A stretch of 64,000 bases of DNA from assembly GCA_965219455.1 (NCBI GenBank), contig OZ244744.1, forward strand, positions 3,424,001 to 3,488,000. The letters are read 5' to 3'. Origin of the DNA: Candidatus Latescibacterota bacterium (GTDB lineage: Bacteria > Latescibacterota > UBA2968 > GCA-2709665). This document shows positions 11,451-28,027 of this stretch, one piece after another. Numbering within the stretch: the stretch's first letter is position 1; the number at the start of each line of letters is the position of its first letter. The notes under the pieces were generated by a model. The model saw nothing but the letters and a program-made list of their open reading frames with translations. It was not told the origin of the DNA and did no database searches. Position numbers and translations under genes: made by a program.

Positions 11451-12218
11451 ATGGCATCGAGTGAAGCCGGGGAGCAGTTCGACCGCCAGGCGGCGAAGTA
11501 TGCGGTGAGCGAAGCGCATTCGTCCGGAGAGAGTTTGCGCATCCTCACTGAGTGGGCATCCCTCGAACGCTACCCGTTGGGTCTGGATATGGCCACCGGT
11601 CCCGGCTTTACGGCGTTCGCGATTGCGGAGTTCTGCGACACAATCGTGGCTTCTGACATCGCGCAAGGCATGCTGGACCAGGCCCGCAAAATTGCCGCCA
11701 GGCGGGGCATCGCAAACGTCCGTTTCGAAATAATCGATGCGAGCGATATTCCGTATCCGGACGCATCCATTGACCTGGTCACCTGTCGTACAGCCCCGCA
11801 CCATTTTCAGGACATCGGGAAGTTTCTTTCAGAAGTCCACCGCGTGTTGAGGCCCGGGGGCGTCTTTCTGCTGTGCGACACCACGACGTCGGAAGACCCC
11901 GTCATCGCGGCGTGGCATCATCAGGTGGAAGTGGCGCGAGATCCTTCGCATGCATCGGCGCCGACACCGTCTAAGTGGCGCAGGTACGTGACGGACACCG
12001 GTTTCGAAATAACCCATACTGCCGCGACGCAGGTGGACATGACGTTCTGGGATTGGGTCAAAAGGTCGGGTACACCTGAGGCGGCCTCGGAAAGCGTGTA
12101 TCGGGACTTTGAGGTGGCATCTCAGGATGTCAGAAGCGAGTTCGGGATACGACGCCTGGGCGAACACGATTTCGAGTTCTACTGGCCGGTTTTCTGTTGT
12201 AGAGTCGTGAAGATCTGA
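11451..12218 (+). CDS. Class I SAM-dependent methyltransferase
   Basis: LDMATGPG, DIAQGML, IDLVTCRTAPHHF, RVLRPGG. Confidence 0.88.
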   Translation: MASSEAGEQFDRQAAKYAVSEAHSSGESLRILTEWASLERYPLGLDMATGPGFTAFAIAEFCDTIVASDIAQGMLDQARKIAARRGIANVRFEIIDASDIPYPDASIDLVTCRTAPHHFQDIGKFLSEVHRVLRPGGVFLLCDTTTSEDPVIAAWHHQVEVARDPSHASAPTPSKWRRYVTDTGFEITHTAATQVDMTFWDWVKRSGTPEAASESVYRDFEVASQDVRSEFGIRRLGEHDFEFYWPVFCCRVVKI

Positions 12219-12287
12219 AACCCGCGATAACGCGGGGCCCGCCGTGTATTGATTCGACCTTGTCGCCAAATCCGGAAGAGAGGAACG

Positions 12288-12701
12288 ATGTCGTCGCCAA
12301 CTACTCAAGCGTGCAAGTTAATTCGCTCCCAGGCAGTCTACACCGGCAAGCAGGCCTTTACGTATCGAACCGGCGTCGCGGCCGAAAACACGGGCGCGCG
12401 CGGGATCTGCATGCACCTGCTGAAAATACCTCCGGGCGAACGCGCCAGGGCGCATCTGCACGAAGGCCACGAGACCGCCGTCTACGTCATCAGCGGCAGG
12501 TCCGGAATGTGGTACGGTGACAGCCTGGAGGAGCACATGTGCGTCGACAGCGGCGATTTCGTCTATATCCCACCCGGCGTGCCCCACCTTCCCTACAATC
12601 CCAGCGAGACCGAAACCTGCACCGTCGTCATCGCCCGCACGGACCCCAACGAGCAGGAGAGCGTCCGGCTACTGCCAGAGTTGGATGGAATACATGGCTG
12701 A
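12288..12701 (+). CDS. Cupin domain protein
   Basis: AHLHEGHET and GDFVYIPPGVPH cupin motifs; C-terminal ARTDPNEQESV; GAGGA RBS. Confidence 0.88.
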   Translation: MSSPTTQACKLIRSQAVYTGKQAFTYRTGVAAENTGARGICMHLLKIPPGERARAHLHEGHETAVYVISGRSGMWYGDSLEEHMCVDSGDFVYIPPGVPHLPYNPSETETCTVVIARTDPNEQESVRLLPELDGIHG

Positions 12702-13138
12702 TAAATCCGCTGTGCGTCGGGCGCCACCCCAGGGAGCCGTTACACACTGTGTAGTTTTGTAAACCTCGCCATCCTGATTGATCCAGCCTCCGCTGTCACA
12801 CCTCACGGCATCCCCTCGTCACGATTCGAAGTCGCCTACCCTGCTGTCTTTTTCGTCTCCGCAATCCAAAAACCCGGTTTCGCGGATGCATAGTCAATCC
12901 ATGCTCGGCTTGAGCGTATCCTGGCGCCCCTGAATACGTCGGTCCGGCAACATGCGCAAGCCATCAGGGGGGCCATCGCAACCTATGGGGTTTTTTCGAC
13001 GGAAACTCACAATCCGGTTTTGGCGAATACACATCCGTTTGAGCGTTAGATCTGCACGGAATCGCCAGGCTTCTGTCCATATGTCCGGGAGAAAATCCGT
13101 TTACGGCTGGCGGGAGAGGGGGCAACAAGGGTGGGTAT

Positions 13139-15220
13139 CTACTGGGGGAGCGGTAAGCCGGATCTGGGGCTCTTTGGACCAGGCGGATTGACGCGTTTGA
13201 AGTCGATCCTGTATTGGTCGAGGGCTTTGAGCGCCTTGTTATGGGGATGAGGATATATATCCCGGGACTTTCTCAATGACACGACGGCGGCGTTCGCCTT
13301 GCCCAGATTCTGTAGAAGCCTGCCCTTGTGGTAGTATAGGTCCGCGAGGGTTTTCTTTTTAAGTGCTTCATGCTTGAGGGTCTCAGCCCTGGTCAACCAC
13401 GACGCGACCTGTTCCCAGTTTGAACTGTTACCATTATCCAGTAAGACTGTGGCCATACCAAGCAGGCTTGCATAACTTCCATGTGCGAGTTGGAACAGTT
13501 GCTGTACGTGATCGCGTAGTGGGTGGCCCGTAAAATGGATCAATCCCAGGTATTGACCATATTGAAACAGCAGTTCGTTACGCCGGACGCGTTCCCAGCG
13601 ATCGATGGGCTTCCAGTTGATGAGGTATACGAAGAACTCCTCGCCGCGTGGGTGGCGCTTCAGCTTTATCGTCCCCGGCTTGCCGTCTCGTGCGGTCTGT
13701 AGCAGGAAGCCGTAGATCCACTTTTGGCGTTCGGGATAGATATCGACGTCAAGTGGGAAAAAGAGTGCGCGTTCGGTCGAGTCGACGAATTTTTCCAGGG
13801 TCTCTTTCCGTGCCGCAGCGGACATAAACGGACTGACGAGGCGCGTGCCAAATACGAGTCCCTGCAGATTGTACAGCGTGACATCGGGACGTCGGTTTTC
13901 GACAAATCGATCGTAGCCGATGTGGCCGGTTGGATCTCCGAATACGAACAGGACCCCATCTTCCAGCACAAGGTCCAACACCATTTCATTGTAACGCTCG
14001 GCAAAGTCGTTATCGGCCCTATCGTTTGCCTGCCAGTGCGAATTCACGGACCAACAGGCTAAGGCGAGGCCGGCCAGCGCTGCCGCACCGATTCTGACTT
14101 TCGGTTGCCGGACCGTCCTGGAGGAGAAGCTCCTTGCCAGCCAGCTATAGACAACCTGCAAACCAATTCCCAGCCACAATGCCTGAATGCCGTAACACGT
14201 CAGGGAATAGGGCCGAAAAACCGCCACCTGGAAATCGTCAAAATCGAAGCGCAGCAGGACAATAAGCACAATGCTGTTCGCGAGAAAGACCAAGACTCCG
14301 GACCAGGCGATTGCGACCTGCCGCCTCCGAAACAGGATGACCAGGCCGAAGACCGCCAGCGCAAATCCCGGCAGCGTCAATTGCCACAAAAACTCGTTGC
14401 CAAGCCACCGCATGAACTTGAACCGGTCGACCCATCCCGCGCTGGGGCTGAGATCGACGTCGACATATCCCTGCCGGCTGACGTAGAACCAGACTTCCTT
14501 AAGTGTGTCGATAGGGCCGTAGAAATTAATCAGTATTTCCTGGTGCGACCTCCAGATCATCCAGATATAAGGAAAAGCCGCGCAGCACCCGAGAATGGCC
14601 AGGAGCAGAGGGAGTTTCCTATATACTGTGCGCCGAACGGTAAAGGCCAGTACCACCAATCCCGGCGTTGACAGCACTGTCAGGGGAAGGTGATTGGCGA
14701 GGCTCAATCCGTAGGCCGCAGCGGCGACTATCCAGATACCGGTACGGTGAGGCTGGCGGATGCCGAACAAGAGCAGTGTGTATAGGCCGAAGAAAAACAG
14801 CGCATTGAGGGTATAGACCTCGGTGACAATGGCCTGGGACCAGAAATGCTCGGAGGCGGCGAACAGCCAGGCGGCGGTCAGAGCCGGAATCGACGAGGCC
14901 CCGATCAGGCGTCCGCACAAATAAACGCAACCGCACGCGAGCGCGCCCAGTACCGCGCTGGACAAATGGCCGAGGAAGGCGGCGCTGCCAAAGGGCAATT
15001 GCGTGAAGAGATATACAATGAACGTATAGAGCGGATATCCCGGCGGATGGGCCACGCCCAGGTGCGCCCCGGCCATCAGAAACAACCCATCGTCTTCCAG
15101 GACAACGGTGCGCGGCATCGTCAACACATAGAGCACGAGCGGGGCCACAACGGACGCAGCCAATGCGGCCACGTCGCGGGCCGGTTCAAACGCTTCATTC
15201 ATGGCGTGCGCGCGATTCAT
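13139..15220 (-). CDS. DUF2723 (TMEM260-like) GT-C membrane glycosyltransferase with C-terminal TPR-like helices
   Basis: EDDG, GVAHPPGYPLY, FWSQA...EVY, ANH motifs and many TM helices. Start overlaps the gtrA stop. Confidence 0.82.
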   Translation of the reverse strand: MNRAHAMNEAFEPARDVAALAASVVAPLVLYVLTMPRTVVLEDDGLFLMAGAHLGVAHPPGYPLYTFIVYLFTQLPFGSAAFLGHLSSAVLGALACGCVYLCGRLIGASSIPALTAAWLFAASEHFWSQAIVTEVYTLNALFFFGLYTLLLFGIRQPHRTGIWIVAAAAYGLSLANHLPLTVLSTPGLVVLAFTVRRTVYRKLPLLLAILGCCAAFPYIWMIWRSHQEILINFYGPIDTLKEVWFYVSRQGYVDVDLSPSAGWVDRFKFMRWLGNEFLWQLTLPGFALAVFGLVILFRRRQVAIAWSGVLVFLANSIVLIVLLRFDFDDFQVAVFRPYSLTCYGIQALWLGIGLQVVYSWLARSFSSRTVRQPKVRIGAAALAGLALACWSVNSHWQANDRADNDFAERYNEMVLDLVLEDGVLFVFGDPTGHIGYDRFVENRRPDVTLYNLQGLVFGTRLVSPFMSAAARKETLEKFVDSTERALFFPLDVDIYPERQKWIYGFLLQTARDGKPGTIKLKRHPRGEEFFVYLINWKPIDRWERVRRNELLFQYGQYLGLIHFTGHPLRDHVQQLFQLAHGSYASLLGMATVLLDNGNSSNWEQVASWLTRAETLKHEALKKKTLADLYYHKGRLLQNLGKANAAVVSLRKSRDIYPHPHNKALKALDQYRIDFKRVNPPGPKSPRSGLPLPQ

Positions 15221-15660
15221 TGGGCGCCGTCCTCGCTGTTTCCCGCCCGATCGAGGGTCCCGTCGCGAAACGTCCATAGGGAATTGACGGAATAGTTGAA
15301 TAAACCGGCCGGGGCAATCGCGCAGCCCTGCCAAATCACCAATGCCACAGCCGGGAATAGAAAGGAAAGCAGCACGAAAGTTCCGTAACTCAGCATCAGC
15401 GTCACAAACGAAACGAGGTGATACTTCAACCCCCGAATCCGCCTCTTTCCGGACAGGGTACGGTCGCTGAAGGTCCAGTAGTTGTTGAGCAGAAAATTCG
15501 AGACAATCGACAGCTCAATCGCAATCGGCGACGCCAGCAATTCGTGCACGCCTAGACCGAGCAACAGCTGAAACGAACCGAGATTGACGAATACTCCGGA
15601 GAGACCGGTCAGCACGAATTTGACGAATGTCGGAGACGGTAATTTTCTGTTTCGTTGCAT
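15217..15660 (-). CDS. GtrA family membrane protein
   Basis: KFVLTGLSGVFVN, NFLLNNYWTF, FNYSVNSLWTF. Confidence 0.88.
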   Translation of the reverse strand: MQRNRKLPSPTFVKFVLTGLSGVFVNLGSFQLLLGLGVHELLASPIAIELSIVSNFLLNNYWTFSDRTLSGKRRIRGLKYHLVSFVTLMLSYGTFVLLSFLFPAVALVIWQGCAIAPAGLFNYSVNSLWTFRDGTLDRAGNSEDGAQ

Positions 15661-16150
15661 GGATATCGAGTGATTGCGGGTGGTGGATGGACGCGGTCCC
15701 GTCTTACGCTACGGGGCCCTATCGCTTTGTTAACCTCATTCCATTGGCGTTCCGCGGAACGTTCAACGACGACGTTACCAAGTTTAACGATATCTCGGAA
15801 CCTCGGCAACTGTAACGGGACGTCTTTCGTGGAACTATGTCCGCGCGAGCGGCGGCATTCGATGGCGTTATCGGAACGATAGAGCCAGGCGCCGTCGCTT
15901 CGCGGATGCCAGCGGTTTCCCGCTCGCATTTGACGGTGACGACCGGTCTGCCTTTGCGTCACCGCACGCACACATGAGACAGTGGCGCCTTGCTGTTTCG
16001 GGAGGGGGAAGCAAGTACAGGGTGTTTTGTCTCGGACGGTTGATGCGCTCAAGCGATACTTCGAACAAAAGCTTGAAAAGGTGGAGAAGACATTCTTGTC
16101 TGCTCATATACAGCAAACCGAAATCTCAGAATGCTGTGTCCGGGAACGCC

Positions 16151-16295
16151 AAAACTCGCCGCCGTCTTCCCCACTGGAAGAAGGACGGCGCTGTCTATTG
16201 GATCACCTTTCGCCTGGCTGACGCGATCCCCCATGGACAAACGCCGTGCCTTCCAAGAAGCGCGTAAGGTGTGGCTCAAGCGCCATCCCGAGTAT
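16151..16295 (+). pseudogene. N-terminal remnant of a REP-associated tyrosine transposase (RAYT, Y1_Tnp family)
   Basis: RRRLPHWKKDGAVYWITFRLADAIP, then a frameshift to ..EARKVWLKRHP; no HUH/Tyr domain follows. Confidence 0.7.
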
Positions 16296-16358
16296 TGGTT
16301 CTATAGTGGCGGCGCAAGCCTTTCTTCTGTCTGCATTCCGGCAAAAGGACAATGAGAA

Positions 16359-16384
16359 GGGCAGACAGGAATGTCTGCCCCACC
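16359..16384 (-). repeat. REP hairpin next to the RAYT remnant
   Basis: gggcagaca-ggaa-tgtctgccc perfect stem; the minus strand reads GTGGGGCAGACATTCCTGTCTGCCC. Confidence 0.7.
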
Positions 16385-16741
16385 TTCACGATTCCTCAAG
16401 GGCTCGACAAGCCATTGTGCGCGGGGAAGATGATTGATTCGCGTATAAAGCAGCTTTGTTGACCAAATACCCTTCGCGTGTTTGCCCGCCGAGCGCGGGC
16501 TGAAATTACCCATCTGAAGTTTCTTGTTGGATCGAACATCGGTGGCTCTTGTCACCGGTGTTTTCTTGTTACAACGATTCCCTGTGCGTTCGGCGCGGCG
16601 TAAGATGCAACAACGTTTCATCCGAGTGAGGCAGAATGGAACACGTTTTTCAAGTACCGGCCGTGGTACGGCGACCTCCGGACCGTTCAAAAATAAAGTC
16701 GCATATGCAAGCCAGACAGTTATGCCCCTGGGTATTGAGAG

Positions 16742-16757
16742 TGGCACAATCCTTGCG
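16742..16757 (+). promoter_or_regulatory. sigma54 (-24/-12) promoter upstream of the peptide precursor genes
   Basis: TGGCAC-AATCC-TTGC with exact GG-N10-GC spacing, 230 bp before the first precursor. Confidence 0.72.
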
Positions 16758-16985
16758 AGTCCAATGCGTCGACGGAGTCACCGGCAACGGGTGTCGGGTG
16801 ACAGGTTATCACGGTTGATTCGCAGCCGAAGCCGCCCCGGCGGGGCGTGTGCCGAGATCGGAAAAAAGGCATACAAAACGCTTCGGAAATCATGGCATCT
16901 CAGCGATGCGCATCCGGCTCCCTGATTTACAACAGAGGAGATTGTCAGGATATCGCGGGGATGTTGACGAAAGGAGGTGATAGAC

Positions 16986-17189
16986 ATGAACAGGCGAACT
17001 GTATCAAGCCCTGTGGACTCGTCCGGAATTCCGGCTCGGCTTCCCATCCGGACGGAGGACTTGACCCACGGGCAGATTGCAGGCATCTCCGGTGGCGACG
17101 CCGGGTTTGGACGCCTCATCAGAGAATTAGTCGCTGAGATTTTTGGCGTGAGATTACCTGCACCAGAGGTTCCGTCCATAACATTGTAG
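16986..17189 (+). CDS. Double-glycine leader peptide precursor 1 (37-aa leader + 30-aa core)
   Basis: RBS AAGGAGGTGA. Leader ends EDLTHGQIAGISGG (L-12, I-7, I-4); core DAGFGRLIRELVAEIFGVRLPAPEVPSITL. Confidence 0.85.
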   Translation: MNRRTVSSPVDSSGIPARLPIRTEDLTHGQIAGISGGDAGFGRLIRELVAEIFGVRLPAPEVPSITL

Positions 17190-17338
17190 CCATCAAGTAA
17201 TACCGCATCCGGAAGTGGCCTTTGATGGTCCAAATGTGTCCGTCTATTCATTCGCGCAGAGGTATATGGACTCATTATATCGGCGCAAACGGATACATCT
17301 GAGTATCGCTGAGACCCAAAGAGGAAGGAGGTGACGAA

Positions 17339-17542
17339 ATGACCGATCGAATCCTTACAGTGCCAACCCAGGCCACCGTGACCTGCGCTCAGCTCCCTGG
17401 CCGTGAGATCGAACTGGCGCATCGTGAGATGTTGAATTCATCGGGAGGTATCTGGCTACCTACAGGTCCGATCTTTATGGTCCGGTTTATTGCGGAGAGA
17501 ATTGCAGAGGTCATTGACGATTACTTCGACGACGGGAGTTAA
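17339..17542 (+). CDS. Double-glycine leader peptide precursor 2 (37-aa leader + 30-aa core)
   Basis: RBS AAGGAGGTGA. Leader ends ELAHREMLNSSGG; core IWLPTGPIFMVRFIAERIAEVIDDYFDDGS. Confidence 0.85.
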   Translation: MTDRILTVPTQATVTCAQLPGREIELAHREMLNSSGGIWLPTGPIFMVRFIAERIAEVIDDYFDDGS

Positions 17543-17779
17543 TCTTGTGTCCGGTCACGTGGAAGGCCGTAATTCCTGGCGACCTCCACAGGCGACAGTT
17601 CGAGTTGAATTTTCAATATGCGCGTTTTTTTTTGTGGCATCGCCGATGACGGAACCAAACCCTCAGGATATCGTCCGCAATCCAGCTGATCGGCGGGTTG
17701 CTGAAGACACCGTGGTCACTGCGAGACGCAGCATCGTAATCGTAGACACTAATCCTAAACAAATCTTCAGGAGGACATC

Positions 17780-18046
17780 ATGACTCACGCGTTGGCTAAT
17801 CCGATGGCGACCGATGCCGGTCACAAGGTTGTAGCCTGTAATCCACTTCGGTGGCGGGAAGAATTACTCGACACTGGACAGATGGGAGAAACACATGGTG
17901 GGTTCATTTTTATACCAGCCCTGGTCGCGGCTGCCCAAGCTGCCGCACCCTGGATATTGGGTACTGCGAGTGGTATCGTTGCTGGATACATTGTCGCTGA
18001 GTTAACGTCCAATAACGGGGGTGGAAGCTGTTGCTGCAAAAAGTGA
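17780..18046 (+). CDS. Double-glycine leader peptide precursor 3, class II bacteriocin-like (41-aa leader + 47-aa core)
   Basis: RBS AGGAGGA. Leader ends LLDTGQMGETHGG; hydrophobic core with GxxxG motifs (GTASG, GIVAG) and a CCCKK tail. Confidence 0.85.
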   Translation: MTHALANPMATDAGHKVVACNPLRWREELLDTGQMGETHGGFIFIPALVAAAQAAAPWILGTASGIVAGYIVAELTSNNGGGSCCCKK

Positions 18047-18152
18047 GTAGTATGCACAGATAGTCTGTTTGTTTATTTCTGGGATAGGTGCAGTTCAGGG
18101 CTTCTGCACCTATCCCAGAAAAGGTCGATTGACACAAGAGTGGAGGTTTTGG

Positions 18153-18953
18153 ATGAAGGACGCCCTACTCGGGGGAACGTGGAGACGTTTTTTTCTCACG
18201 GCCTTTTTGTATGCGTGTTTGTCCGTTGCGCCGGCCGTTCTATTTGTTAAGTATGTCCTTAATCTGGACAATTCTATACTGTTAGCTGTTTTCGTTGGTC
18301 AGGCATTTTCGTTTATAATCCTGCGAAGAACGCTCTCTGCGTCTGCTGAGCGAATGCTGCGCGCAGTCTGCGGGCTGATTAAGTCGAGTCCCGAAGAAAT
18401 AAAAGGCGTCGAAGACCGAAAATCCGGTCAAGTAGCTATTGACAAAGATGAAGTGTACCAATTGTCCGCATTGATGTTCTGGCTCTCCGCGATGATTGTC
18501 GTGATCGTCAGATTCTCGCTTTCGTGGGAAGTCGATTTACGTCTATCGTTCGGGGGTTTGTTTAAATTCGCAGGATACCTCATCGTTGTTTATGTTTTTC
18601 ACGAAGCACTTCACGGTATTGCCGCGATAGCCTGGGCAAAGATTCCATTTCAATCACTGCACTTTGGTATCAACAGGCGATTGATGGCCCTGTACTGTCA
18701 TGCCGACAGACCGATGACGGTAAGCGCTTACCGGGCATTCGTGCTCTTGCCCATAATTGTGACAACACCGGCTGCGGCCCTGGTATTGTGGTTGGACCCT
18801 GCGATCTGGTCGCTCTTGCTCTTCAGTGGGACAGTTGCCGGGTGCGCCGGAGATGTCATGGTTTATTTCCAAGTCCGCCGACTTGACAATGACAGATGGG
18901 TAAAGGATCACCCGTCGGATATCGGCTTTCGCATTTTGCCTGAAGGGGAATAA
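18153..18953 (+). CDS. DUF3267-like putative zincin membrane metallopeptidase
   Basis: HEALHG, ALYCH, GCAGD, DHP..IG motifs and TM helices. GGAGG RBS at 18142-18146. Confidence 0.78.
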   Translation: MKDALLGGTWRRFFLTAFLYACLSVAPAVLFVKYVLNLDNSILLAVFVGQAFSFIILRRTLSASAERMLRAVCGLIKSSPEEIKGVEDRKSGQVAIDKDEVYQLSALMFWLSAMIVVIVRFSLSWEVDLRLSFGGLFKFAGYLIVVYVFHEALHGIAAIAWAKIPFQSLHFGINRRLMALYCHADRPMTVSAYRAFVLLPIIVTTPAAALVLWLDPAIWSLLLFSGTVAGCAGDVMVYFQVRRLDNDRWVKDHPSDIGFRILPEGE

Positions 18954-19033
18954 CGATAACCTGAGGCGACGAATCCCGAATACGAAAACCGCACGACCCC
19001 ATTTCTCTATCCACCACATATGAAGGTATCTCA

Positions 19034-19876
19034 ATGACGTATCCGAATCTGAAGCAGGCCATTTGGTTGTTGGTTTTATTTGCACTCATTCAAGTCATTC
19101 TGGTCGTGCTTGCGGCCGCTGCAGGCCGGTGGCTGTTCGAGAGTGAATTCTTGTCGGTCATTCTGTTAGTTGTGAGTTTCATTGTCATTCTGCTTTATGT
19201 GCACTACCGCGCAGATCTGACGTGGGAGGATATATCCCGGAGTTTCAACGTGGATTTTGATTGGCGGGTTTGGCCCTGCGTCACAATATCCATTGTCGGT
19301 ATGGCGATGGTTCTTTTCGAATTGGACAAAGCCTTGGTCCGTATAATGCCTATGCCAGAGTGGGTACAGGATACCCTTCATTCGGCGTTCGGGCGCGAAA
19401 CATCTTTCTCGTCTGCCTTACTCTATGCAGTTATTGTCGGACCTTTGGTCGAAGAGGTGCTTCATAGAAGGATAATATTGAGTGGTCTTCTGGCAAACTA
19501 TAACGCGATTAATGCGTTTGTCTGGTCAGCAGTTCTGTTTGGCGTGTTTCATCTGATTCCGTGGCAAATCCCCGGCGCGTTCCTCGGGGGATTGTTACTT
19601 GCCTGGTGGGTTATCCGAACGGGGTCTTTGTTGCCCGCTCTGTTCGGGCACGTGTTGAACAATATTATCGGCGTTGCATCTCTGCACTTTGAAATTCCAT
19701 ATCTGGCGGTTTCGGATGACCTTAATGTTGTGGTTTTCAATCCTTGGTGGTGGATTGTTTCCGGGGCGGCGTTGGCCGCTCTCGGACTATGGTGGTTTTC
19801 ACGGGTTTCGAAACCCGTTCAGCCCGGTTCCCACGACCATGTTCTTCCTGCAAATGCCGAGACAAATACAGGTTAG
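19034..19876 (+). CDS. CPBP/Abi (CAAX protease-like) intramembrane protease, copy 1
   Basis: EEVLHR, FGVFH, GHVLNN motifs all intact; starts MTYPNLKQ. Confidence 0.9.
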   Translation: MTYPNLKQAIWLLVLFALIQVILVVLAAAAGRWLFESEFLSVILLVVSFIVILLYVHYRADLTWEDISRSFNVDFDWRVWPCVTISIVGMAMVLFELDKALVRIMPMPEWVQDTLHSAFGRETSFSSALLYAVIVGPLVEEVLHRRIILSGLLANYNAINAFVWSAVLFGVFHLIPWQIPGAFLGGLLLAWWVIRTGSLLPALFGHVLNNIIGVASLHFEIPYLAVSDDLNVVVFNPWWWIVSGAALAALGLWWFSRVSKPVQPGSHDHVLPANAETNTG

Positions 19877-19960
19877 GGACTGACAGGGCGTTCCTGGTTT
19901 CGTTAGTACCCACATCGGCTACTGGGCGCTCTCCGGGGACGCAATCGGTCGTTGTTACAC

Positions 19961-19976
19961 ATATTATATATAATAT
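19961..19976. promoter_or_regulatory. Perfect 16-bp AT palindrome containing TATAAT upstream of the transporter genes
   Basis: ATATTATATATAATAT; TATAAT at 19969-19974; no consensus -35 at standard spacing. Confidence 0.45.
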
Positions 19977-20170
19977 ATCCTGGAGAGAATGGGTCGACTT
20001 CAAATCTCCGCAAATTAAAATTGAGAGCCGCGTGCAGGATCTCTCGTCAGCGACGGCAAGTCCCGGGTATCCAGCCGGAAGTCTAGTCCGCAACCAACGA
20101 GCCGCGTCCCACCGGACATCGGTATACATCCGGACGTTCGAATAGTTCTGCCATTTACGGGAAGGAAACA

Positions 20171-23100
20171 ATGGACGTCTTGTCCCTCTTTTCCCAACAT
20201 GAGATTCAGTCAGAATCCGTCCGGTTTCCCTTCGGGGCGGTCATCTTTGATCAAGGCGGAACTGGCGCCGCATTTTACGTCGTTCAATCCGGTCGGTTGC
20301 GGGTCATCAAACAGGCTGCGGACGCCCGTTCGGAGACGCTGGGATATTTGTACGCCGGCGATCATTTTGGCGAAGGGGCGCTGTTGACGGGGCGCGGGCA
20401 TCGGGCAACGGTGCGAGCGGTTGAGGATTCCCTGGTGTTGCGGGTACCGCGGGATGAATTCTTCAGGGTGTTGAAGAAAGAACCGGAAATCGAAGCCCAT
20501 CTTCAGGACCAGGTTGCGGATATCGCATACCGGGATTTCACCCGGTATCTAAAGGGTAATGTCCAAGGTGAGGCGATCCGGGAACTGTTCCGGCGATTGA
20601 CGCGCGAAGAGGTCGCGGAGGGAACGACAGTTTCGGAACCCGGTCGTTCGCGCGGGCGGTTCTGCCTGGTGGGCATCGGCGGGTTGGAAGTGATCTCAGA
20701 GGATGGCAGTGCGCTGAATTTAGTCGCGGGCGATTTTTTCGAGGATACGGATTCTTCAGATGGCGAGCAACGGACGATCCGCAGCCAGCAAGATTGCGTT
20801 ATCTATTATTTGGATAAACACGAACTCGATAGCCTCAACTATGCAATTCCTGAATTAGCGTCCTTACCGGAGATAGCCCGGCGATTACACCTGGATCAGG
20901 GAACGGACGGGTCGCTGTCTCCCGAGCCGCAACCGGGGGGATTTCGTGTGCCGGCGGGAGGGACGGACGGGAACAACGACGCGGAGATGAATGGACCGGC
21001 ATCCAGTACCGGGGATAGCGATACGGATGGGGGTGGACAAGGCGCGCCCACGTCGTTTCGTTTTCCATTCCTGAAGCAGCACGACCAGTCCGATTGCGGC
21101 GCCGCGTGTCTGGGGATGATCTGCAAGTACTACAAGTTGCCGTTGGGGTTGAACAGGTTGCGCGATATGTGCAACGTGTCGAAGGACGGCACGTCGATGG
21201 CGGCAGTGGCCGAGGCGGCGGAGACGCTGGGGTTTGTTACGCGGGGCGTGCGTACGGGCTATGAAGAGCTGATGCGGACCGGACTGCCGGCGATTCTGCA
21301 CTGGGAGGGCAACCATTTCGTGGTGTTGTATGAGATCACCAAAAAGGATGTGAAAATCGCGGATCCCGGTTTGGGCCTTCGCAGGTTGAAGCGACCGGAA
21401 TTCGAGAAAAGCTGGACCAACATGGCGTTGCTGCTGGAGTACACGGATCAGGTGGCCGAGAATGAACCCTCCAGGTCCTCCTTCAAACGTTTCTTGCCAT
21501 TGATAAGGCCCTATACGGCAATTCTGATCGAGGTGCTGCTGGCGTCCCTCGTGCTCAGTTTATTGGGCCTTGCCTCGCCTATTTTCACACAGACAATCGT
21601 CGACCAGGTGCTGGTTCATCACGATAAGGATCTCCTGAACCTGATGCTGGCGGGCATGGTGGTCGTGGCACTGTTTCAAATGGGTACCTCGACGTTGCGC
21701 GCGTATTTAATAGGGTATATGAGCGCCCGGTTGAGTCTGACCATGCTGTCCCGCTTCTACCGGCATCTGCTGGGCCTGTCCATGCGGTTTTTTGCGCTTC
21801 GCCGCACCGGCGATCTGACCACGCGGTTCAAGGAAAATGCCACGATTCAGCGTCTCTTTACCGACACGACCATCTCGGCGATACTCGACTTTATCATGTT
21901 GTTCGTCTATCTGGGGCTGATGTTCTACTACAACTGGGAATTGACGCTCGTGATGTTGATATTCGTGCCGCTGTCCGTGGGTTTGACGCTGATCTATACC
22001 CCGATTCTGAAGTCCTTCAGCCAGCGCGCATTTCTTGCCCGCGCGGAACAGTCGTCCGTCCTGATCGACTCGCTGCATGGCATTGACGTGGTGAAAGCCG
22101 AAGCCGTCGAGCGGGTTACGAGATGGCAGTGGGAGGGCAAGTTTACGAGGGAAGTTCAGATCGGGTTTCGACGACTGAAAATGGAGATGCTGTTCGGCGC
22201 GGGCGGAAGTATGATTAATCTCTTGAGTTCCACGGTGATATTGTGGTATGGCGCCTCCCTGGTTATCGACGGGGAGTTGTCGGTGGGCCAGTTGATGGCT
22301 TTCAACGCCCTCATCGGCAATGTAATGGGACCCATTATGGGACTGATCGGCGTGTGGCCGGAGGTCCAGGAAGCCCGGGTCGCGTTGGACAGGCTGAATG
22401 ACGTCTACGAATCGAAGATGGAGGATGCGCGCCAACGCGGACACGGCCTGAGACTGAAGCGGGTCGAGGGCCGCCTGGTGTTTGAAGGTGTGTTTTTCAG
22501 GTACGGCGTCGGTTCCGACGAGCCCTACGTGTTGAACAACATCGAGCTGGAACTGGAACCGGGTCGAAAGGTCGCCATTGTCGGCCGTAGCGGCGCGGGA
22601 AAGACCACGCTCGTAAAGCTGGTGCCCCGTCTGTTCGATCCCTCGGAAGGGCGTGTGCTCGTGGACGGGATGGATGTGCGCGATTTCGACCCTCACTGGC
22701 TGCGCCGCCAGGTGGGCATGGTTATGCAGGACTCGTTTCTGTTCAGCGGCACCATTGCGGAGAACATCGCGGTCGGAGAATCTGACGCGGATATGGACCG
22801 TCTCCTGGAAGTTGCAAGATTGGCCTGCGTCCAGGATTTCGTAAACGATATGCCTTTGGGATACGAGACCAAGGTGGGCGAACAGGGAATTGGATTGTCC
22901 GGCGGGCAGCGGCAACGGATCGCGATCGCCCGGGCGCTGTATCGCGATCCGAAGATACTGATTTTCGACGAGGCGACAAATGCGCTTGATACGGACTCGG
23001 AAGGTGCGATTCAGTCCAATCTGGAGCTATTCCTTGAGAATCGTACGGCTCTCGTCATCGCCCATCGGTTGAGCACCGTGAGGGATGCCGACACGATTGT

Positions 23101-23206
23101 TGTACTGGAAAAGGGCCATATCGTCGACATGGGCACGCACGAAGAACTGATGGTTCGTCGCGGTCTCTACTATCACATGTGCAGCCAGCAGTTGCAGGTG
23201 GTCTGA
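20171..23206 (+). CDS. Peptidase-containing ABC transporter (cNMP-binding x2, C39 peptidase, TMD, NBD)
   Basis: cNMP motif GDHFGE.ALL....RATVRA plus a degenerate second copy. C39 QHDQSDCGAAC, HFVV, IADP (Cys/His/Asp intact). GRSGAGKT, LSGGQRQR, FDEAT, AHRL. Confidence 0.95.
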   Translation: MDVLSLFSQHEIQSESVRFPFGAVIFDQGGTGAAFYVVQSGRLRVIKQAADARSETLGYLYAGDHFGEGALLTGRGHRATVRAVEDSLVLRVPRDEFFRVLKKEPEIEAHLQDQVADIAYRDFTRYLKGNVQGEAIRELFRRLTREEVAEGTTVSEPGRSRGRFCLVGIGGLEVISEDGSALNLVAGDFFEDTDSSDGEQRTIRSQQDCVIYYLDKHELDSLNYAIPELASLPEIARRLHLDQGTDGSLSPEPQPGGFRVPAGGTDGNNDAEMNGPASSTGDSDTDGGGQGAPTSFRFPFLKQHDQSDCGAACLGMICKYYKLPLGLNRLRDMCNVSKDGTSMAAVAEAAETLGFVTRGVRTGYEELMRTGLPAILHWEGNHFVVLYEITKKDVKIADPGLGLRRLKRPEFEKSWTNMALLLEYTDQVAENEPSRSSFKRFLPLIRPYTAILIEVLLASLVLSLLGLASPIFTQTIVDQVLVHHDKDLLNLMLAGMVVVALFQMGTSTLRAYLIGYMSARLSLTMLSRFYRHLLGLSMRFFALRRTGDLTTRFKENATIQRLFTDTTISAILDFIMLFVYLGLMFYYNWELTLVMLIFVPLSVGLTLIYTPILKSFSQRAFLARAEQSSVLIDSLHGIDVVKAEAVERVTRWQWEGKFTREVQIGFRRLKMEMLFGAGGSMINLLSSTVILWYGASLVIDGELSVGQLMAFNALIGNVMGPIMGLIGVWPEVQEARVALDRLNDVYESKMEDARQRGHGLRLKRVEGRLVFEGVFFRYGVGSDEPYVLNNIELELEPGRKVAIVGRSGAGKTTLVKLVPRLFDPSEGRVLVDGMDVRDFDPHWLRRQVGMVMQDSFLFSGTIAENIAVGESDADMDRLLEVARLACVQDFVNDMPLGYETKVGEQGIGLSGGQRQRIAIARALYRDPKILIFDEATNALDTDSEGAIQSNLELFLENRTALVIAHRLSTVRDADTIVVLEKGHIVDMGTHEELMVRRGLYYHMCSQQLQVV

Positions 23207-23233
23207 ACCTCCGGCAGACCAGGAGCCGATCTG

Positions 23234-24634
23234 ATGGCGGAACCCGGACTAACAAAGCCGTCGGCAGCAGCGACGCCGGTCATTCTCCCGGGACGGTACG
23301 ACGGTACGGAAGAGATGCAGGCGTTCGTGGGGTCTCTGAGGCCGTTCTGGGGTCGAGCGTTGCTCTATCTCGTTCTGCTCTTTGTAGGAATCGCGGTGGC
23401 TTGGGCGTGGTGGGGCAAGGTGGACGTGGTGGCATCGGCGCCCTTCCGATTGGTGCCTCTGGGCAAGGTGAAGACGCTTCAGGCCCGTCGAGGCGGAGAA
23501 ATCGAGCATATCGGCGTCAGCGAAGGCGATCGGATCGAAGAAGGCCAATTGCTGTTCAAACTGAAGTCATGGGAAACCTGGGGAGACCTTCGAGAACTGG
23601 AACAGGCGGAAATGGCGTTTCAAAAGGCCGAGTACGATCTTCAACGGGTATTGCCCCAGAGGACGGAATTGAACCGGAAAACCATCGCGTCAATGGAAAA
23701 AAGACTGTCTGTTCTGGAGCGGTTCATGGTGGCCCATCAGAACGCCTTGCAGGATTACCACGCGGACGTGGGTGACGACGCGGTCGCGGGAAGGAGCGCT
23801 TCGGACGCTGAGTTGCAGGCACAAATCGGCTTTCGCCAGGCTGAGATCGACCATTTGAAACAGGATTACCTGCAGCAGAAATTGCTGTTTGAGCGCAAGC
23901 TGATCAGCCGCGTGGAAATTAACCGCGCGCGCGTTCGGTACCTCAGCGCCCTGGCGGCGCTTCCGGGACGCATGTCGGAAATCTACAAGAACGAAACGGC
24001 TGTCCAGGATCTCCAACGGCAGATTCTCGAGGCTCGCATCGCCCACGGGCGTGAGGCCTCGCAGATGAAACACGCGTATGAAACCGCGCGATTGAGATTG
24101 GAACAGGCGCGTAAACGCGTCGATCGACAGTTGGAAGCCGAATCGGACCTGATTCTGGCGCCGGAGCCGGGCATCGTAACGCAGGTGATGGTGAACACCC
24201 TGGGACAGGTGATCAGCAAGGGTCAGGCGCTGGTTTCGGTGGCGCCGGCCTCTGCTCCCATGGTTGCCGAACTCACGGTATTGAACAGGGACGTGGGCCT
24301 GCTTAAACCCGGACAGATAGTCAAACTGAAATACGACGCGTTTGCATTTCAGGACTTTGGCATCAAACGCGGCTGGCTCAAACAACTCTCCCCCGATGCC
24401 GTCATCGACGAGAGTGTCGGGCCGATCTTCAGGGCCGTTGTTGAATTGGAAAAAACCACCATGGCCGTGAAGGGACAGCAAAAGCCGCTGCTGTTCGGAA
24501 TGAAGGGGACGGCGGAAATCATGACGGACCGCCAATCGGTCTTGCTGATGTTACTCAGTCCTTTGAGAAAGCTGTACGAGTCCGCAACGTACGATGCCGC
24601 GGAAACGTCAATTGCGCGGCAGGGGGATTCGTAA
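23234..24634 (+). CDS. HlyD-family membrane fusion protein of type I secretion
   Basis: Single TM then KVDVVASA; lipoyl-like halves, long coiled coil, VKLKYDAF, GMKGTAEI. Confidence 0.92.
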   Translation: MAEPGLTKPSAAATPVILPGRYDGTEEMQAFVGSLRPFWGRALLYLVLLFVGIAVAWAWWGKVDVVASAPFRLVPLGKVKTLQARRGGEIEHIGVSEGDRIEEGQLLFKLKSWETWGDLRELEQAEMAFQKAEYDLQRVLPQRTELNRKTIASMEKRLSVLERFMVAHQNALQDYHADVGDDAVAGRSASDAELQAQIGFRQAEIDHLKQDYLQQKLLFERKLISRVEINRARVRYLSALAALPGRMSEIYKNETAVQDLQRQILEARIAHGREASQMKHAYETARLRLEQARKRVDRQLEAESDLILAPEPGIVTQVMVNTLGQVISKGQALVSVAPASAPMVAELTVLNRDVGLLKPGQIVKLKYDAFAFQDFGIKRGWLKQLSPDAVIDESVGPIFRAVVELEKTTMAVKGQQKPLLFGMKGTAEIMTDRQSVLLMLLSPLRKLYESATYDAAETSIARQGDS

Positions 24635-25449
24635 TGCGGCGTCCGGCGGAAGACGAAACCGTAGCCTCGGCCCTTGAAATAACGCTGGTTCAGGTCAATG
24701 GCATCGATGTGTCGCTGAATCAGGTCGCATGTCAGCTGGGCGTTGCCGACAAACTCGATTTTTTCGGTGAATTCGCACGCAGGGAACTGGTCCGGCAGCT
24801 TGCCGTCCGGGAAGGTATTCACACGACGTCCGAAGACATCCAGCGCGACGTGGACGATTGGCGTTACCGACATCGCCTGGAAAGGGTGGAAGACACGGAA
24901 GCCTGGCTGGTATCGCGAGGCATTACTCTCGGAGACGTTGCGGCGGAAGCCGAAGACAGGCTGTTGGAGCGCCTGCTGTGTGAAAAAATAGCGGAAGGAG
25001 AAATCGAACGCTATTTCGCGCAAAACACGCTGGATTTCGACGAGGCGGAGGTCTGCTGGGTCTTCCACCCGGACAGAGGTACCATCGAGGAGATTGCGCT
25101 TCAGACGCGGGAAGACGGCACCGATTTTTGCGCGATGGCCCGCGGATTTTCGCAAGATGAGCGGACGCGCCCGGCAGGCGGGTTTATGGGGCGCGTGCGG
25201 CGCAAGCTGTTGCCGAAGGGAATCGCGGCGCGGGTTTTCGCCGCCTCGCCGGGGGAAATCTTCGGACCCGAAAAGGCGTCGGGCGGGTTCGCGCTGTTTA
25301 TGCTTCAGCAGAACCATCCTGCAACGCTTGACGACCGCGTCACAGGCGAGATTCGCGACACATTGTTCAACCAGTGGCTTCAAAGGGAGTTGCAACGGGC
25401 GGACATACGCTATCCGATCTGGGAGGCCGGGAAGCAGGAGCGGCAATAA
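24634..25449 (+). CDS. PpiC/parvulin-like peptidyl-prolyl isomerase or chaperone associated with the T1SS
   Basis: SurA-like helical N-part, then DFCAMARGFSQD...GGFMG, VFAASPGEIFGP. Start overlaps the hlyD stop (TAATG). Confidence 0.82.
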   Translation: MRRPAEDETVASALEITLVQVNGIDVSLNQVACQLGVADKLDFFGEFARRELVRQLAVREGIHTTSEDIQRDVDDWRYRHRLERVEDTEAWLVSRGITLGDVAAEAEDRLLERLLCEKIAEGEIERYFAQNTLDFDEAEVCWVFHPDRGTIEEIALQTREDGTDFCAMARGFSQDERTRPAGGFMGRVRRKLLPKGIAARVFAASPGEIFGPEKASGGFALFMLQQNHPATLDDRVTGEIRDTLFNQWLQRELQRADIRYPIWEAGKQERQ

Positions 25450-25636
25450 ATGCCCGGCAGAGGCCGGTGACTGCGTGCTTCACCGATGGCAGCAAAATAG
25501 ACCTCGAGGTATACCTTCGGTTTACCGGTGGTTGGGCTCAATCATAGCGAACCGTCAACGCAGCGGCTGGCTTCAGGTAAGCATACGCCCTCGCTGCTGA
25601 CTGATCGCCTTTATCATACTTAATCTGAATTAGCAC

Positions 25637-25665
25637 TTGTCATTCTCATTCGCGGAAACTATATT
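25637..25665 (+). promoter_or_regulatory. sigma70-type promoter directly before the structured element
   Basis: TTGTCA, 17 bp, TATATT; predicted start ~25671-25672. Confidence 0.6.
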
Positions 25666-25670
25666 TCGGT

Positions 25671-25809
25671 TGTCACCACTCAGGCAGTACCCGTATGTCG
25701 GGTAGCCTACCGAATACAATAGCCGACTTTCAGGGGCAAGGGTAGCTCCCATGTCCCCGGCGAATACGTAGGACCTTCCCGCATCCTCAAAGCTGCGTGA
25801 GTGGTGACA
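25671..25809 (+). ncRNA. Candidate structured small RNA (~140 nt, three-way junction); alternatively a MITE
   Basis: Ends pair 16/17 (tgtcaccactcaggcag / ctgcgtgagtggtgaca). Internal stems tacccg/cgggta, cctac/gtagg, gccg/cggc, ggggca/tgtccc. An upstream promoter points at its first base. Confidence 0.5.
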
Positions 25810-26066
25810 CTGCCCGGCACCCTTTAATCGGGGTGCCGCCGGAAAGTTCATCACTGAATGGCGAGGGGATGGAGCGGGATTTTTTTGTGCCCTTTTCGGC
25901 ACGTACGGTCAACCGATGCGGCGGCGCGGTCTATAATATCACGTGTGCGGTCAGCAGTTGCAGGTGGTGTGTACACATAATTAAGAAACGGTACTCAGAC
26001 TGAGCCGCGTCCCCACTGGTTTGCGGTCGTTGGATGTGCTGACATCTGTCAAATGGGAGGAAATAC

Positions 26067-26894
26067 ATGGCGTATCCGAACCTGAAGCAATCCGTGTGGC
26101 TCCTGATATTGTGTTTCCTGATCAGCGTGGTACTGGGGGTGCCGATCGCAATCCTGGGTCTCATCTTCGACCGGTCTTTACATCACAGCCCACACGAAAT
26201 CCAGCTCTTGACATTGGCCGGTTTCGTTTTGACGGTAATCTACGCAAAGCGTAGAGCAGATCGGACCTGGCGCGAGATCCTGCTTTTTGAGCGGGTTTCG
26301 TGGCAATTCTACATGCCGCTCGGCGTGTCCATTGTTGGACTGGCAATCGTTGGCTCGGACCTGGGAAACCTGTTGCGGCACCTGATACCGGTGCCCGAAA
26401 TAATGCTCAACGTATTCGGGGATCTGGCAGGGAAGGAGAAGTCCTACCCGTTCACATTTTATGTCATGGTGGTTCAGGCGCCATTGATTAAGGAAGTCCT
26501 CTTCAGAAGCGTTATACTGGGTGGCTTGTTGGCCCACCGAACGCGGAATCAGGCCATTGTCTGGTCGGCGTTGCTGTTCGCTGTATTTCATATGAACCCA
26601 TGGCAATTTCCCACGGCCTTGATATTGGGACTCGTATTCGCATGGTGGGTCGTCCAAACTGGCTCTCTGCTGCCCGCGATCGTGGGACACGCGCTGAACA
26701 ATTTTCTGATAGTGACGGTTGCGCATCTGGAAATTTTCGGTCCCATGGATAATGTCAATGCCGTGATGTTGCTTCCCGGGTGGCTGCACGTATGTGGCGT
26801 TATCCTGGCTCTGATCGGATTGTGGTGGTTCAATGAGATGGCAAAAAGCAAAGGCGAGCAGGTCGAAACGCTAGCAGACCGGGAGCATGTCTGA
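26067..26894 (+). CDS. CPBP/Abi protease paralog, copy 2 (EE motif changed to KE)
   Basis: IKEVLFR, FAVFH, GHALNN; starts MAYPNLKQS; GGGAGG RBS. Confidence 0.88.
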   Translation: MAYPNLKQSVWLLILCFLISVVLGVPIAILGLIFDRSLHHSPHEIQLLTLAGFVLTVIYAKRRADRTWREILLFERVSWQFYMPLGVSIVGLAIVGSDLGNLLRHLIPVPEIMLNVFGDLAGKEKSYPFTFYVMVVQAPLIKEVLFRSVILGGLLAHRTRNQAIVWSALLFAVFHMNPWQFPTALILGLVFAWWVVQTGSLLPAIVGHALNNFLIVTVAHLEIFGPMDNVNAVMLLPGWLHVCGVILALIGLWWFNEMAKSKGEQVETLADREHV

Positions 26895-26978
26895 TGGCGG
26901 AACCCCTCAAACGACCCTCGCCGGGGATCCGGATCGATTGATGTACGGACAGCTGATCGTTTAAATGGGAGGCCATAC

Positions 26979-27834
26979 ATGGCGTATCCGAATCTGAAGC
27001 AATCCGTCCTGTTGGTGGTCCTGTTGTACCTGATTATGTTAGGACTGTTTTTGCCCCTTGTCCTCCTGAGCGGGATTCTTGACCAGGATTTGATCTCGAA
27101 TCCCTATGTCAATACCTTCGTGACATTGGTCAGTTTCTTCCTGGTGATTGTGTACGCCCGGCGGCGGACCGACCGGACCTGGCCCGATATCCTGCTATTC
27201 AGAACGGTACCCTGGGGATTGTACCTGCCCCTTGCGGTTTCTATTGTTGGACTGTCGATCGCAATCTCCATCGTGGAAGACGGGGTACATTACCTGATTC
27301 CGATGCCCGAAATGATAGTCAAGATATTTCGAGATCTGGTGTCGAAAGAAACGCCCTATGCTTACGCTTTTTATAACCTTGCGGTCCAGCCGCCGTTTAC
27401 GGAAGAAGTGCTATTCAGGGGTGTCATTCTGATTGGCTTGCTGGCCCACCAGACCCGGAAACGGGCTATTTTCTGGTCGGCATTCCTGTTCGCTCTATTT
27501 CATTTGAATCCGTGGCAGATTCCCGCCGCCCTTGTATTGGGAATTGTATTTGCCTGGTGGGTCATTCAGACCGGTTCGCTGCTGCCCGCGATTGCGGGCC
27601 ATGCGCTGAATAATTTCCTTTTCCTCAATGGTTGCGCGCTACGAAATATTCGGGCCTTTGGATGATTTCAATAATCTGGCATGCCTTCCGTGGTGGCTGA
27701 ACGTGTGCGGCATCATCCTCGCAGTAGTCGGTTTGTGGTGGTTCAACCAGATGGTAAACCGCGGCAAGACGCAGGTAGAAATGTCGACCAACCATGCGCC
27801 GGTCGAAGCGCCCGCTGATCGGGATCCTGTCTGA
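26979..27834 (+). pseudogene. CPBP/Abi protease paralog, copy 3, +1 frameshift near 27624-27627
   Basis: EEVLFRG, FALFH, GHALNN in ORF 26979-27665. The homologous tail MVARYEIFGP..LWWFN continues in another frame to 27834. Confidence 0.82.
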
Positions 27835-27995
27835 TGGTGCAACCCGAATGAGTGGACTCGTCGGGAACACCGTCTCCAATGGCCCTCCCGAAGCGGAAGA
27901 GGACGGAATAGCGATGCGCGTCTGCGCGCCAGGCATCTGGTTCGGCAATGGCGCCCTTCGGCACCCCAACATCGCAATATCGAAGTCAATTAATG

Positions 27996-28027
27996 TGTTG
28001 CAGTTTGCAACAGGATATGGGTATTAT
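27996..28027 (+). promoter_or_regulatory. Palindromic operator TGTTGCA-N3-TGCAACA overlapping a possible promoter
   Basis: Perfect 7-3-7 inverted repeat at 27996-28012; TTGCAG, 18 bp, TATTAT. Confidence 0.5.

Follow-up and report, generated by a model that had tools for sequence, protein, structure and literature searches.

In a 64-kb window of the Candidatus Latescibacterota contig OZ244744.1 (the whole stretch of DNA analysed here, 64,000 nucleotides, with positions counted from its first base), two adjacent small genes, pre1 and pre2, each encode a leader ending in a double glycine (GG) followed by a 30-residue core, and the gene after pre2, which we call pre3, has a leader of the same kind. 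We give somewhat better than even chances to the interpretation that all three peptides are ribosomally made, double-glycine-leader substrates of the adjacent transporter and are separate, unmodified, microcin-like antagonists. Pre1 and pre2 belong to a new peptide family of narrow distribution, of a kind that is well known among bacterial export peptides, and are probably separate from one another rather than a matched pair.

Genes, leaders and the double-glycine site

Strong ribosome-binding sites (Table 1) and coding-type substitutions confirm pre1 and pre2 as real genes. The block aaaggaggtga stands ahead of the pre1 ATG in 15 of 15 orthologues, and in comparisons with 14–19 orthologues the leader differences at first, second and third codon positions number 99/109/166 for pre1, 167/156/328 for pre2 and 156/129/228 for pre3; because they concentrate at third positions, the three reading frames can be taken as coding. 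An antisense open reading frame (ORF) at 16778–17422 (214 aa) was considered as a gene and rejected, as its open stretch varies from 74 to 219 aa across 15 genomes. In two metatranscriptome libraries of a single study there are contigs that cover a ∼90%-identical relative of pre2 (X20, 17318–17865; X21, 17415–17536); this is a weak hint only that the relative is expressed, because a contig's presence in such a library is no proof of transcription, and neither are the uncovered parts of 16800–18100 evidence of silence.

An earlier note, made from the sequence alone, had described pre1 and pre2 as precursors with a 37-residue leader, a 30-residue core and a GG at the junction, and its coordinates and architecture are right. 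The GG is invariant in 47/47 aligned orthologues; among database clusters it lies at residues 36–37 in 54/54 for pre2 and 52/53 for pre1 (106/107 together), the sole exception being a gene call with a longer N terminus, and the leaders of the 16 short remote members examined end in GG as well. Conservation of this position in homologs was one of the refutation tests set beforehand for the earlier note, and it is kept everywhere. Measured against the double-glycine leader consensus ELx3E(I/L)x2(I/V)xGG, as given by PMC3140520, pre1 agrees at L-12, I-7, I-4, G-2 and G-1, while pre2 agrees at L-12, E-8 and M-7 and has Ser or Ala at position -4, which we counted as agreement. The pre1 leader residues M1, P16, L19, P20, T23, E24, L26, Q30, A32, G36 and G37 are the same in 15 of 15 genomes. 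Profile–profile comparison (hhalign) gives probabilities of 78% for the pre1 and pre2 leaders, 95% for pre2 and pre3 and 90% for pre1 and pre3, with every alignment ending at the GG, and by this measure the three leaders are homologous to one another.

None of the three peptides has a family match in Pfam (E ≤ 0.01) or NCBIfam (E ≤ 0.1), and the same scans gave no match to NHLP, N11P or other named precursor family profiles. Within the window's own genome, a single 5.84-Mb contig, pre1 and pre2 have no paralogues (best other E-values, 0.6–1.5), and a leader-profile search of the 14.5-kb locus found no further GG-leader gene. Pre1 occurs in 14/14 other genomes of the genus (E-values 8.9e-28 to 8.2e-8), which belongs to a 22-genome GTDB family, and in 0/7 genomes of the family's other four genera (best E-value, 0.17). 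Pre2 occurs in 12 of the 14 (E ≤ 3.9e-12), being absent from G008 and G017, both of which carry pre1, so that the two genes are found together in 13/15 genomes of the genus; seven genomes have a second, different pre2 gene in tandem. More distantly, the pre2 profile matches 36/53 genomes of the order (E ≤ 0.01), including 18/21 of one sister-family genus; at E ≤ 1e-4 it matches 33/168 genomes of the phylum and 0/115 outside the order, and against 1.84 billion representative proteins it has 27 matches at E ≤ 0.001. The few database entries that bear a name are called "hypothetical protein." As judged by these searches, the peptides are new families confined to one order of Candidatus Latescibacterota. 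In the literature on Latescibacteria or Latescibacter bacteriocins, double-glycine peptides and sponge RiPPs (ribosomally made peptides that are modified after translation), supplements being outside the scope, we found no publication on them; one genome paper gives, in the part concerned, antiSMASH classes only (PMC12993501). What the present analysis provides is names and boundaries for two, really three, unannotated peptide families.

The sister genus (loci L079–L084) has 37-residue leaders of both pre2-like and pre1-like kinds, with very acidic cores that begin with Cys and carry Trp-rich tails (...SEWWASW; ...PYYPWSWP), as well as further peptides whose leaders end in ...EEMAGIDG.

Core exchange and the nature of the cores

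The cores of pre1 fall into two discrete 30-residue types. Type A (DAGLGRLIRNLVAEIFGV.LPEPDVPSGTL) is found in 7/15 genomes, the window included, and type B (AIRWR.ILRDLFGIDLGTN.PE..AAGP.L) in 8/15. Among full-length clusters (25 of type A, 17 of type B), core identity is 85% within type A, 77% within type B and 23% between them, compared with 67% for the leaders of the two types, and one A/B pair shares 36/37 leader residues. By alignment count, G000 (type A) and G018 (type B) have 36/37 leader residues but only 6/30 core residues in common, and the trees of ABC, HlyD and rotamase make them sisters; the type also switches between G008 and G015. The exchange can be placed to the base in two DNA sequencing runs (X9 and X14), where contigs match the window's pre1 leader as far as base 17095, within the second Gly codon, before turning to GIRWRDILR; in the same runs, other contigs go on as type A. 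Both core types are thus present side by side in these runs, and the switch falls at the predicted cleavage site. Pre2 and pre3 likewise have alternative core cassettes that assort independently of the pre1 type; the pre2 form ...FIAERIAE..., for example, goes with type A in G000 but is found beside type B in G018 and G012. The core is swapped cleanly where the leader is predicted to be cut, and the two types turn up together in the same samples, which makes this locus a compact natural example of modular leader/core evolution.

The sharp separation of the pre1 types opens the way to what we consider the main rival, though by our estimate a rather unlikely one: pre1, and perhaps pre2, could be a secreted signal whose two core types are pherotypes, with the receptor encoded elsewhere and with nucleotide-gated export as proposed for HetC. 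The low identity between types under leaders shared up to 36/37, the switches of type between the sister genomes G000/G018 and G008/G015, the occurrence of both types in the same DNA runs and the lack of an adjacent immunity gene after pre1 would all suit a signal, and HetC, which has the same domain order as the transporter here, is thought to export a regulatory peptide, according to the part of its description that concerns export (PMC10986499). The nearest language-model neighbors of pre1 (Protein Atlas) include ComC-family clusters, at scores of 0.82–0.85, which lie below 0.9 and are a lead only. As these pheromones are generally described, ComC with its competence-stimulating peptide (CSP) and BlpC resemble the present peptides in having short amphipathic mature products, a conserved leader and exchanged discrete types; they also come with a cognate histidine kinase and response regulator, neither of which is present in this locus or in the window. 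Against a signal, the scan of 43 window ORFs turned up neither a histidine kinase nor a response regulator, nor any other receptor. Moreover, no locus protein co-varies with the pre1 type: the type changes 4–5 times in every one of six trees, those of ABC, HlyD, rotamase, the two downstream CPBPs and the long DUF3267 (12–13 genomes, G012 and G016 left out), which is no fewer than with shuffled labels (207–464 of 500 label shuffles did as well). CPBP and DUF3267 genes are also numerous in the locus and show turnover and pseudogenes, as is the pattern of toxin/immunity loci.

The earlier note had also remarked on anionic cores and on the placement of their prolines, and here its description was accurate. 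Side-chain net charges of cores 1, 2 and 3 are -1, -4 and +1; they contain 3, 2 and 2 prolines, which in core 1 lie in the tail (RLPAPEVPSITL) and in core 2 in the head (IWLPTGPIF), and core 3 contains IVAEL. P58 of pre1 and P41 of pre2 are each conserved in at least 90% of sequences. An anionic core is a family trait of pre2: in database clusters, where core length ranges from 17 to 42 aa in the family, 41/54 pre2 cores are net negative, some down to -12, and the sister-genus cores (CILPGEDP...EDIIDDICDAVSEWWASW) have net charges of -10 to -12.

A shared amphipathic helix, which the same note proposed for the two cores, stood up in part. The segments RLIRELVAEIF and RFIAERIAEVI are the best ungapped 11-mer match between cores 1 and 2 (BLOSUM62 score 26, 5/11 identical), but this score was reached by 22/2000 composition-preserving shuffles, which is modestly above chance for a match picked after the fact. 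Peak helical hydrophobic moments (core 1, 0.75; core 2, 0.72) were equalled in 64/1000 and 40/1000 shuffles, respectively, and so are high without being extreme. The AlphaFold2 models have helices at residues 39–53 of pre1 (block pLDDT 71–73) and 44–64 of pre2 (75–87), covering both 11-mers, and another at residues 23–33 in the pre2 leader. The motif [VI]AE[IVL] occurs once in the 14,886 residues of 27 other window proteins; because it is so rare in this background, its presence in all three cores is unlikely to be due to chance, with the reservation that the motif was defined after being seen. It is found in 31/52 pre1 cores and 20/54 pre2 cores (37/54 in the form [VI]AE[AIVL]), whereas pre1 cores of type B, pre3 cores of type II and sister-genus cores lack it. 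Its conservation in homologs, another of the tests set for the note, thus extends within core subtypes and not across the family. A helix with an Ala-Glu element in each core is, on the models, real, whereas a homologous helix common to both was not borne out, core-only profile comparison of pre1 and pre2 finding no homology (probability 3%, 5 columns).

Nor do we find that pre1 and pre2 form the two-component pair envisaged by the note. Were they halves of an obligate two-peptide bacteriocin with amphipathic helices packing together, one would expect adjacent genes of the same 37+30 layout, occurring together in most genomes (13/15 here), with cores predicted to be helical and an 11-mer similarity rarely matched in shuffles (22/2000), all of which is seen. 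However, pre1 occurs without any pre2 in G008 and G017 (2/15 genomes), two different pre2 genes accompany a single pre1 in seven genomes, and the pre1 core type changes while the neighboring pre2 subtype stays constant (G000 vs. G018 and G012). The gene following pre2 is pre3 rather than a single immunity gene for the pair, and the cores are not homologous by profile comparison. Class IIb two-peptide bacteriocins of Gram-positive bacteria have GxxxG-type packing motifs in both peptides and one immunity gene directly after the pair. As commonly characterized, they share with pre1 and pre2 adjacent genes and two helix-forming GG-leader peptides of similar size; in contrast, the cores here are not cationic and lack GxxxG (such spacing occurs in pre3 alone, as GTASG and GIVAG), no single immunity gene follows, and neither co-occurrence nor co-variation is constant. 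We therefore consider this reading very improbable. Complex prediction for core 1 with core 2 (residues 38–67) gave a score of 0.02 against a mark of 0.32, which counts neither for nor against binding.

The exporter locus and the function of the peptides

The three precursor genes lie directly upstream of a complete export module (Table 1). In the transporter, cNMP_binding matches residues 17–103 (E-value 1.3e-25) and Peptidase_C39 residues 298–424 (E-value 1.5e-38), and, in alignment with the solved double-glycine proteases LahT150 (6mpz) and PCAT1 (4ry2), the C39 part retains the DCG-A Cys, NHF His and Asp-Pro positions, so that this peptidase-containing ABC transporter (PCAT) is intact. The rotamase scores 80.2 bits against TIGR04500 (PpiC-related peptide maturation protein), under the cut-off of 180, and is probably cytoplasmic because it has no hydrophobic segment. 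Fourteen relative loci are syntenic with the window; their ABC, HlyD and rotamase proteins are 70–96% identical, the peptides 40–75%. The rotamase gene is kept in all 14 loci whose region was examined, and the CPBP pair lies downstream of it in 13/13 genomes examined (G011 has one only). G016 (L047) is an exception among the loci: only two ∼180-aa ABC-like pieces, 61% identical to the transporter, are present within 14 kb, the peptides and membrane proteases being retained, and its exporter may have decayed or been replaced. A Pfam scan of 43 window ORFs detected no peptide-modifying enzyme, histidine kinase or response regulator.

In predicted domain order the export module agrees with the long-type module of cyanobacteria and with HetC. 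The cyanobacterial groups I and II of Wang et al. 2011 (PMC3140520), as far as their description goes, share with this locus the order nucleotide-binding domain–C39–ABC, HlyD and SurA-like rotamase companions, and small GG-leader precursor genes nearby whose products are mostly negatively charged. They differ from it in phylum, the locus here being of Candidatus Latescibacterota; the precursors here match none of NHLP, N11P, HetP or DUF37, three CPBP genes and a DUF3267 gene belong to the locus, and precursors are always present, compared with an average of 0.35 per cluster reported for group I (PMC3140520). HetC of Nostoc PCC 7120 is likewise a PCAT with an N-terminal cyclic-nucleotide-binding-type domain, and its peptidase domain is active; the likeness is one of domain order. 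The account of HetC gives no known substrate and no GG-leader gene near it, whereas here three candidate substrates are encoded directly upstream; it reports binding of ppGpp, and the N-terminal cyclic nucleotide (cNMP)-type domain of the present transporter suggests nucleotide gating on the same grounds (PMC10986499).

The presence of the rotamase had been tentatively attributed, in the earlier note, to the proline content of the cores. The attribution does not hold, since a rotamase is, in the published survey of cyanobacterial groups I, II and VI, a standard companion of the long-type C39 ABC protein and HlyD and so needs no explanation from these prolines (PMC3140520); the conserved P58 and P41 leave a role for the rotamase possible. 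One could go further and suppose that the cores are processed after, or instead of, the cut at GG, through trimming of proline segments by the CPBP or DUF3267 proteins and isomerization by the parvulin, so that the end products would be something other than the 30-residue peptides. The catalytic motifs are all preserved (HEALH in DUF3267; EExxxR, FxxxH and HxxxN in CPBP1 and CPBP3), P58 and P41 are conserved, the rotamase gene is kept throughout, and in the biosynthesis of TMcin a DUF3267 protein is proven to act as the leader protease, as set out in PMC13712780. Yet pre1 and pre2 have no membrane-spanning segment for an intramembrane protease to act on (maximal 19-residue hydropathy, KD19, 0.92 and 1.02), G017 retains pre1 without DUF3267, and in cyanobacteria the rotamase goes with this transporter type whatever the precursors, on the evidence given in PMC3140520. 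Further processing thus seems to us quite unlikely.

We therefore return to separate, microcin-like antagonists. As we envision their path, the C-terminal part of the leader (LP-x-R/T-E-x-L-x3-E/Q-M/I-x4-GG) would dock in the C39 peptidase domain, the leader would be cut after Gly37, and the 30-residue core would exit by way of the ABC/HlyD channel and of an outer-membrane partner whose gene lies outside the locus, export being probably controlled by a nucleotide that binds the N-terminal cNMP-type domain. Each core, which shows no sign of enzymatic modification, is predicted to fold into a single amphipathic helix next to a proline-containing segment, and the peptides would act separately, as independently exchangeable members of a multi-peptide antagonism locus in which the CPBP and DUF3267 membrane proteases may serve as immunity or processing factors. 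CPBP/Abi proteins can act as bacteriocin immunity factors, and in the present genomes the CPBP/DUF3267 copy number varies, with fragments in G006, G009, G013 and G015. Antagonism is favored because of the exchange of core cassettes, these variable and fragmented CPBP and DUF3267 genes, the lack of modifying enzymes or receptor genes in the window, and the anionic charge; the last is compatible with such a role, since most microcins, as reviewed in PMC10233263, are neutral or anionic because they enter through receptors. The analysis establishes the reality of the genes, the conservation of the GG, the homology of the leaders, the synteny with an intact PCAT and the modular exchange of cores; cleavage, export, helix formation and antagonism are inferred.

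Several observations weigh against this preferred reading. No immunity-like gene directly follows pre1 or pre2, further precursors coming next instead, and no gene among the six tested tracks the pre1 core type. The pre1 cores are more conserved within their type (85% and 77%) than the first half of their own leaders (53–58%), which suggests a precise binding partner and fits a signal equally well. All carriers are uncultured metagenome-assembled genomes. The leaders of class IIa microcins are much shorter than 37 aa. Within the set of ten known class II microcins described in PMC10233263, cores are 60–90 aa, compared with 30 aa here, and the leaders here (37 aa) are far longer; the class IIa members (MccV with CvaAB) resemble the present peptides as unmodified GG-leader peptides of a diderm exported by a PCAT and membrane fusion protein, but they have small dedicated immunity proteins, are restricted to Enterobacteriaceae and show no sequence similarity to the peptides here. 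In the one characterized case covered by PMC13712780, moreover, DUF3267 is a leader protease and not an immunity protein, and by analogy the CPBP proteins may likewise process peptides rather than protect.

A more far-reaching proposal, which we judge improbable, is that these peptides are the first recognizable substrates of a nucleotide-gated, HetC-type PCAT with a cytoplasmic parvulin, that pre1 is a diffusible recognition signal in two co-existing types swapped exactly at the GG junction, and that the Ala-Glu element, buried in the helix and common to all three cores, is a tag for a common partner, either a CPBP/DUF3267 protease or a receptor. If true, it would provide a working model for the cargo of HetC-like transporters and for peptide signaling in an uncultured phylum. 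Regardless, the locus unites substrates and exporter in a complete and conserved form for the long, nucleotide-binding PCAT type, of which the best-studied member, HetC, is still without a known substrate, and it offers a starting point for finding what recognizes these peptides.

Feature coordinates, pre3 and minor observations

Table 1. Features of the precursor and exporter region, in window coordinates.
Feature	Position	Strand	Description
pre1 Shine–Dalgarno	16973..16977	+	GGAGG, 8 nt ahead of ATG
pre1	16986..17189	+	ATG 16986, stop 17187–17189; 67 aa; GG at residues 36–37; 30-aa core
pre1 leader	16986..17096	+	37 codons, ending ...GQIAGISGG; L-12, I-7, I-4, G-2, G-1 match double-glycine consensus
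pre1 core and stop	17097..17189	+	30 aa, type A: DAGFGRLIRELVAEIFGVRLPAPEVPSITL; predicted helix residues 39–53; aligned 11-mer nt 17112–17144
pre2 Shine–Dalgarno	17327..17331	+	GGAGG, 7 nt ahead of ATG
pre2	17339..17542	+	ATG 17339, stop 17540–17542; 67 aa; GG at residues 36–37; 30-aa core
pre2 leader	17339..17449	+	37 codons, ending ...ELAHREMLNSSGG; L-12, E-8, M-7, G-2, G-1; predicted helix residues 23–33
pre2 core and stop	17450..17542	+	30 aa, IWLPTGPIFMVRFIAERIAEVIDDYFDDGS, net charge -4; predicted helix residues 44–64; aligned 11-mer nt 17483–17515
pre3	17780..18046	+	88 aa; 41-aa GG leader, homologous to pre1/pre2 leaders (GG at residues 40–41); 47-aa core
DUF3267 (PF11667) membrane zincin	18069..18953	+	HEALH at residue 178, five hydrophobic segments; possible immunity protein or intramembrane protease
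CPBP/Rce1-like intramembrane protease	19034..19876	+	EEVLHR, FGVFH, HVLNN intact; candidate immunity or processing protein
Transporter, 1011 aa	20171..23206	+	cNMP-binding, peptidase C39, ABC membrane, ABC ATPase (long-type PCAT); predicted leader protease and exporter
HlyD-family periplasmic adaptor	23234..24634	+	TIGR01843, 211.7 bits, over cut-off 208.65
PpiC/parvulin-type rotamase, 271 aa	24634..25449	+	No hydrophobic segment
Two CPBP/Rce1-like membrane proteins	26067..27665	+	26067–26894 and 26979–27665

The core of pre3 contains one transmembrane (TM)-like segment, IVAEL and the tail SCCCKK. Over the region 17780–18953, the TM-like segment (residues 41–61) comes right after the GG and has GxxxG-type spacing, and the DUF3267 gene (HEALH) is directly next. 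This arrangement recalls the transmembrane bacteriocin TMcin and its protease TmcP as described in PMC13712780, where a TM-helix peptide with C-terminal cysteines stands beside a DUF3267 intramembrane zincin, TmcP, that removes its leader; unlike TMcin, which is Gram-positive and, by that description, has its own transporter and escort protein, pre3 has a PCAT-type GG leader. By analogy, pre3 and DUF3267 may be a diderm counterpart of TMcin or a hybrid PCAT/S2P pathway. Alternative pre3 cores under a shared leader were seen in relatives (window 17903–18043; L038, L040, L041, L044, L045, L047, L050), the window having the Cys-tail type; with the core type WY.DR...DGLSNL, a short DUF3267 and then a CPBP gene come next in 7/7 genomes, and a third, Gly/Ala-rich type is found in G017 (L039).

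Searches for regulatory elements gave little. Rfam had no match over 12000–30000 (E ≤ 0.1), a promoter scan of 15600–18200 found no promoter-like site, and a terminator scan of the same region found one terminator-like hairpin (16534–16563), no more than in shuffles; folding of the RNA of two intergenic spacers indicated no structure (z-scores -0.9 and -0.1). A nine-T run at 17622–17630, ∼80 nt past the pre2 stop and behind an A/T-rich hairpin, may act as a weak terminator separating pre2 from pre3, although it was not among the calls of the terminator scan. No conserved peptide ORF lies in the 618 bp that separate the rotamase gene from CPBP2. Within this gap (25450–26066), at about 25869, a nucleotide block read as "MERDFF..." is kept in five genomes (G000, G018, G017, G013 and G014); the frame behind it is not conserved, and the block may be a regulatory site. 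Farther along the window, at 57037–58991, an AAA_21 (AbiEii-type ATPase) gene and the DUF4276 gene after it look like a defense or toxin–antitoxin-type module, and 59031–62891 encodes a 1286-aa protein in which a Top1-type zinc ribbon and DUF559 are joined to a DEAD/Helicase_C core.

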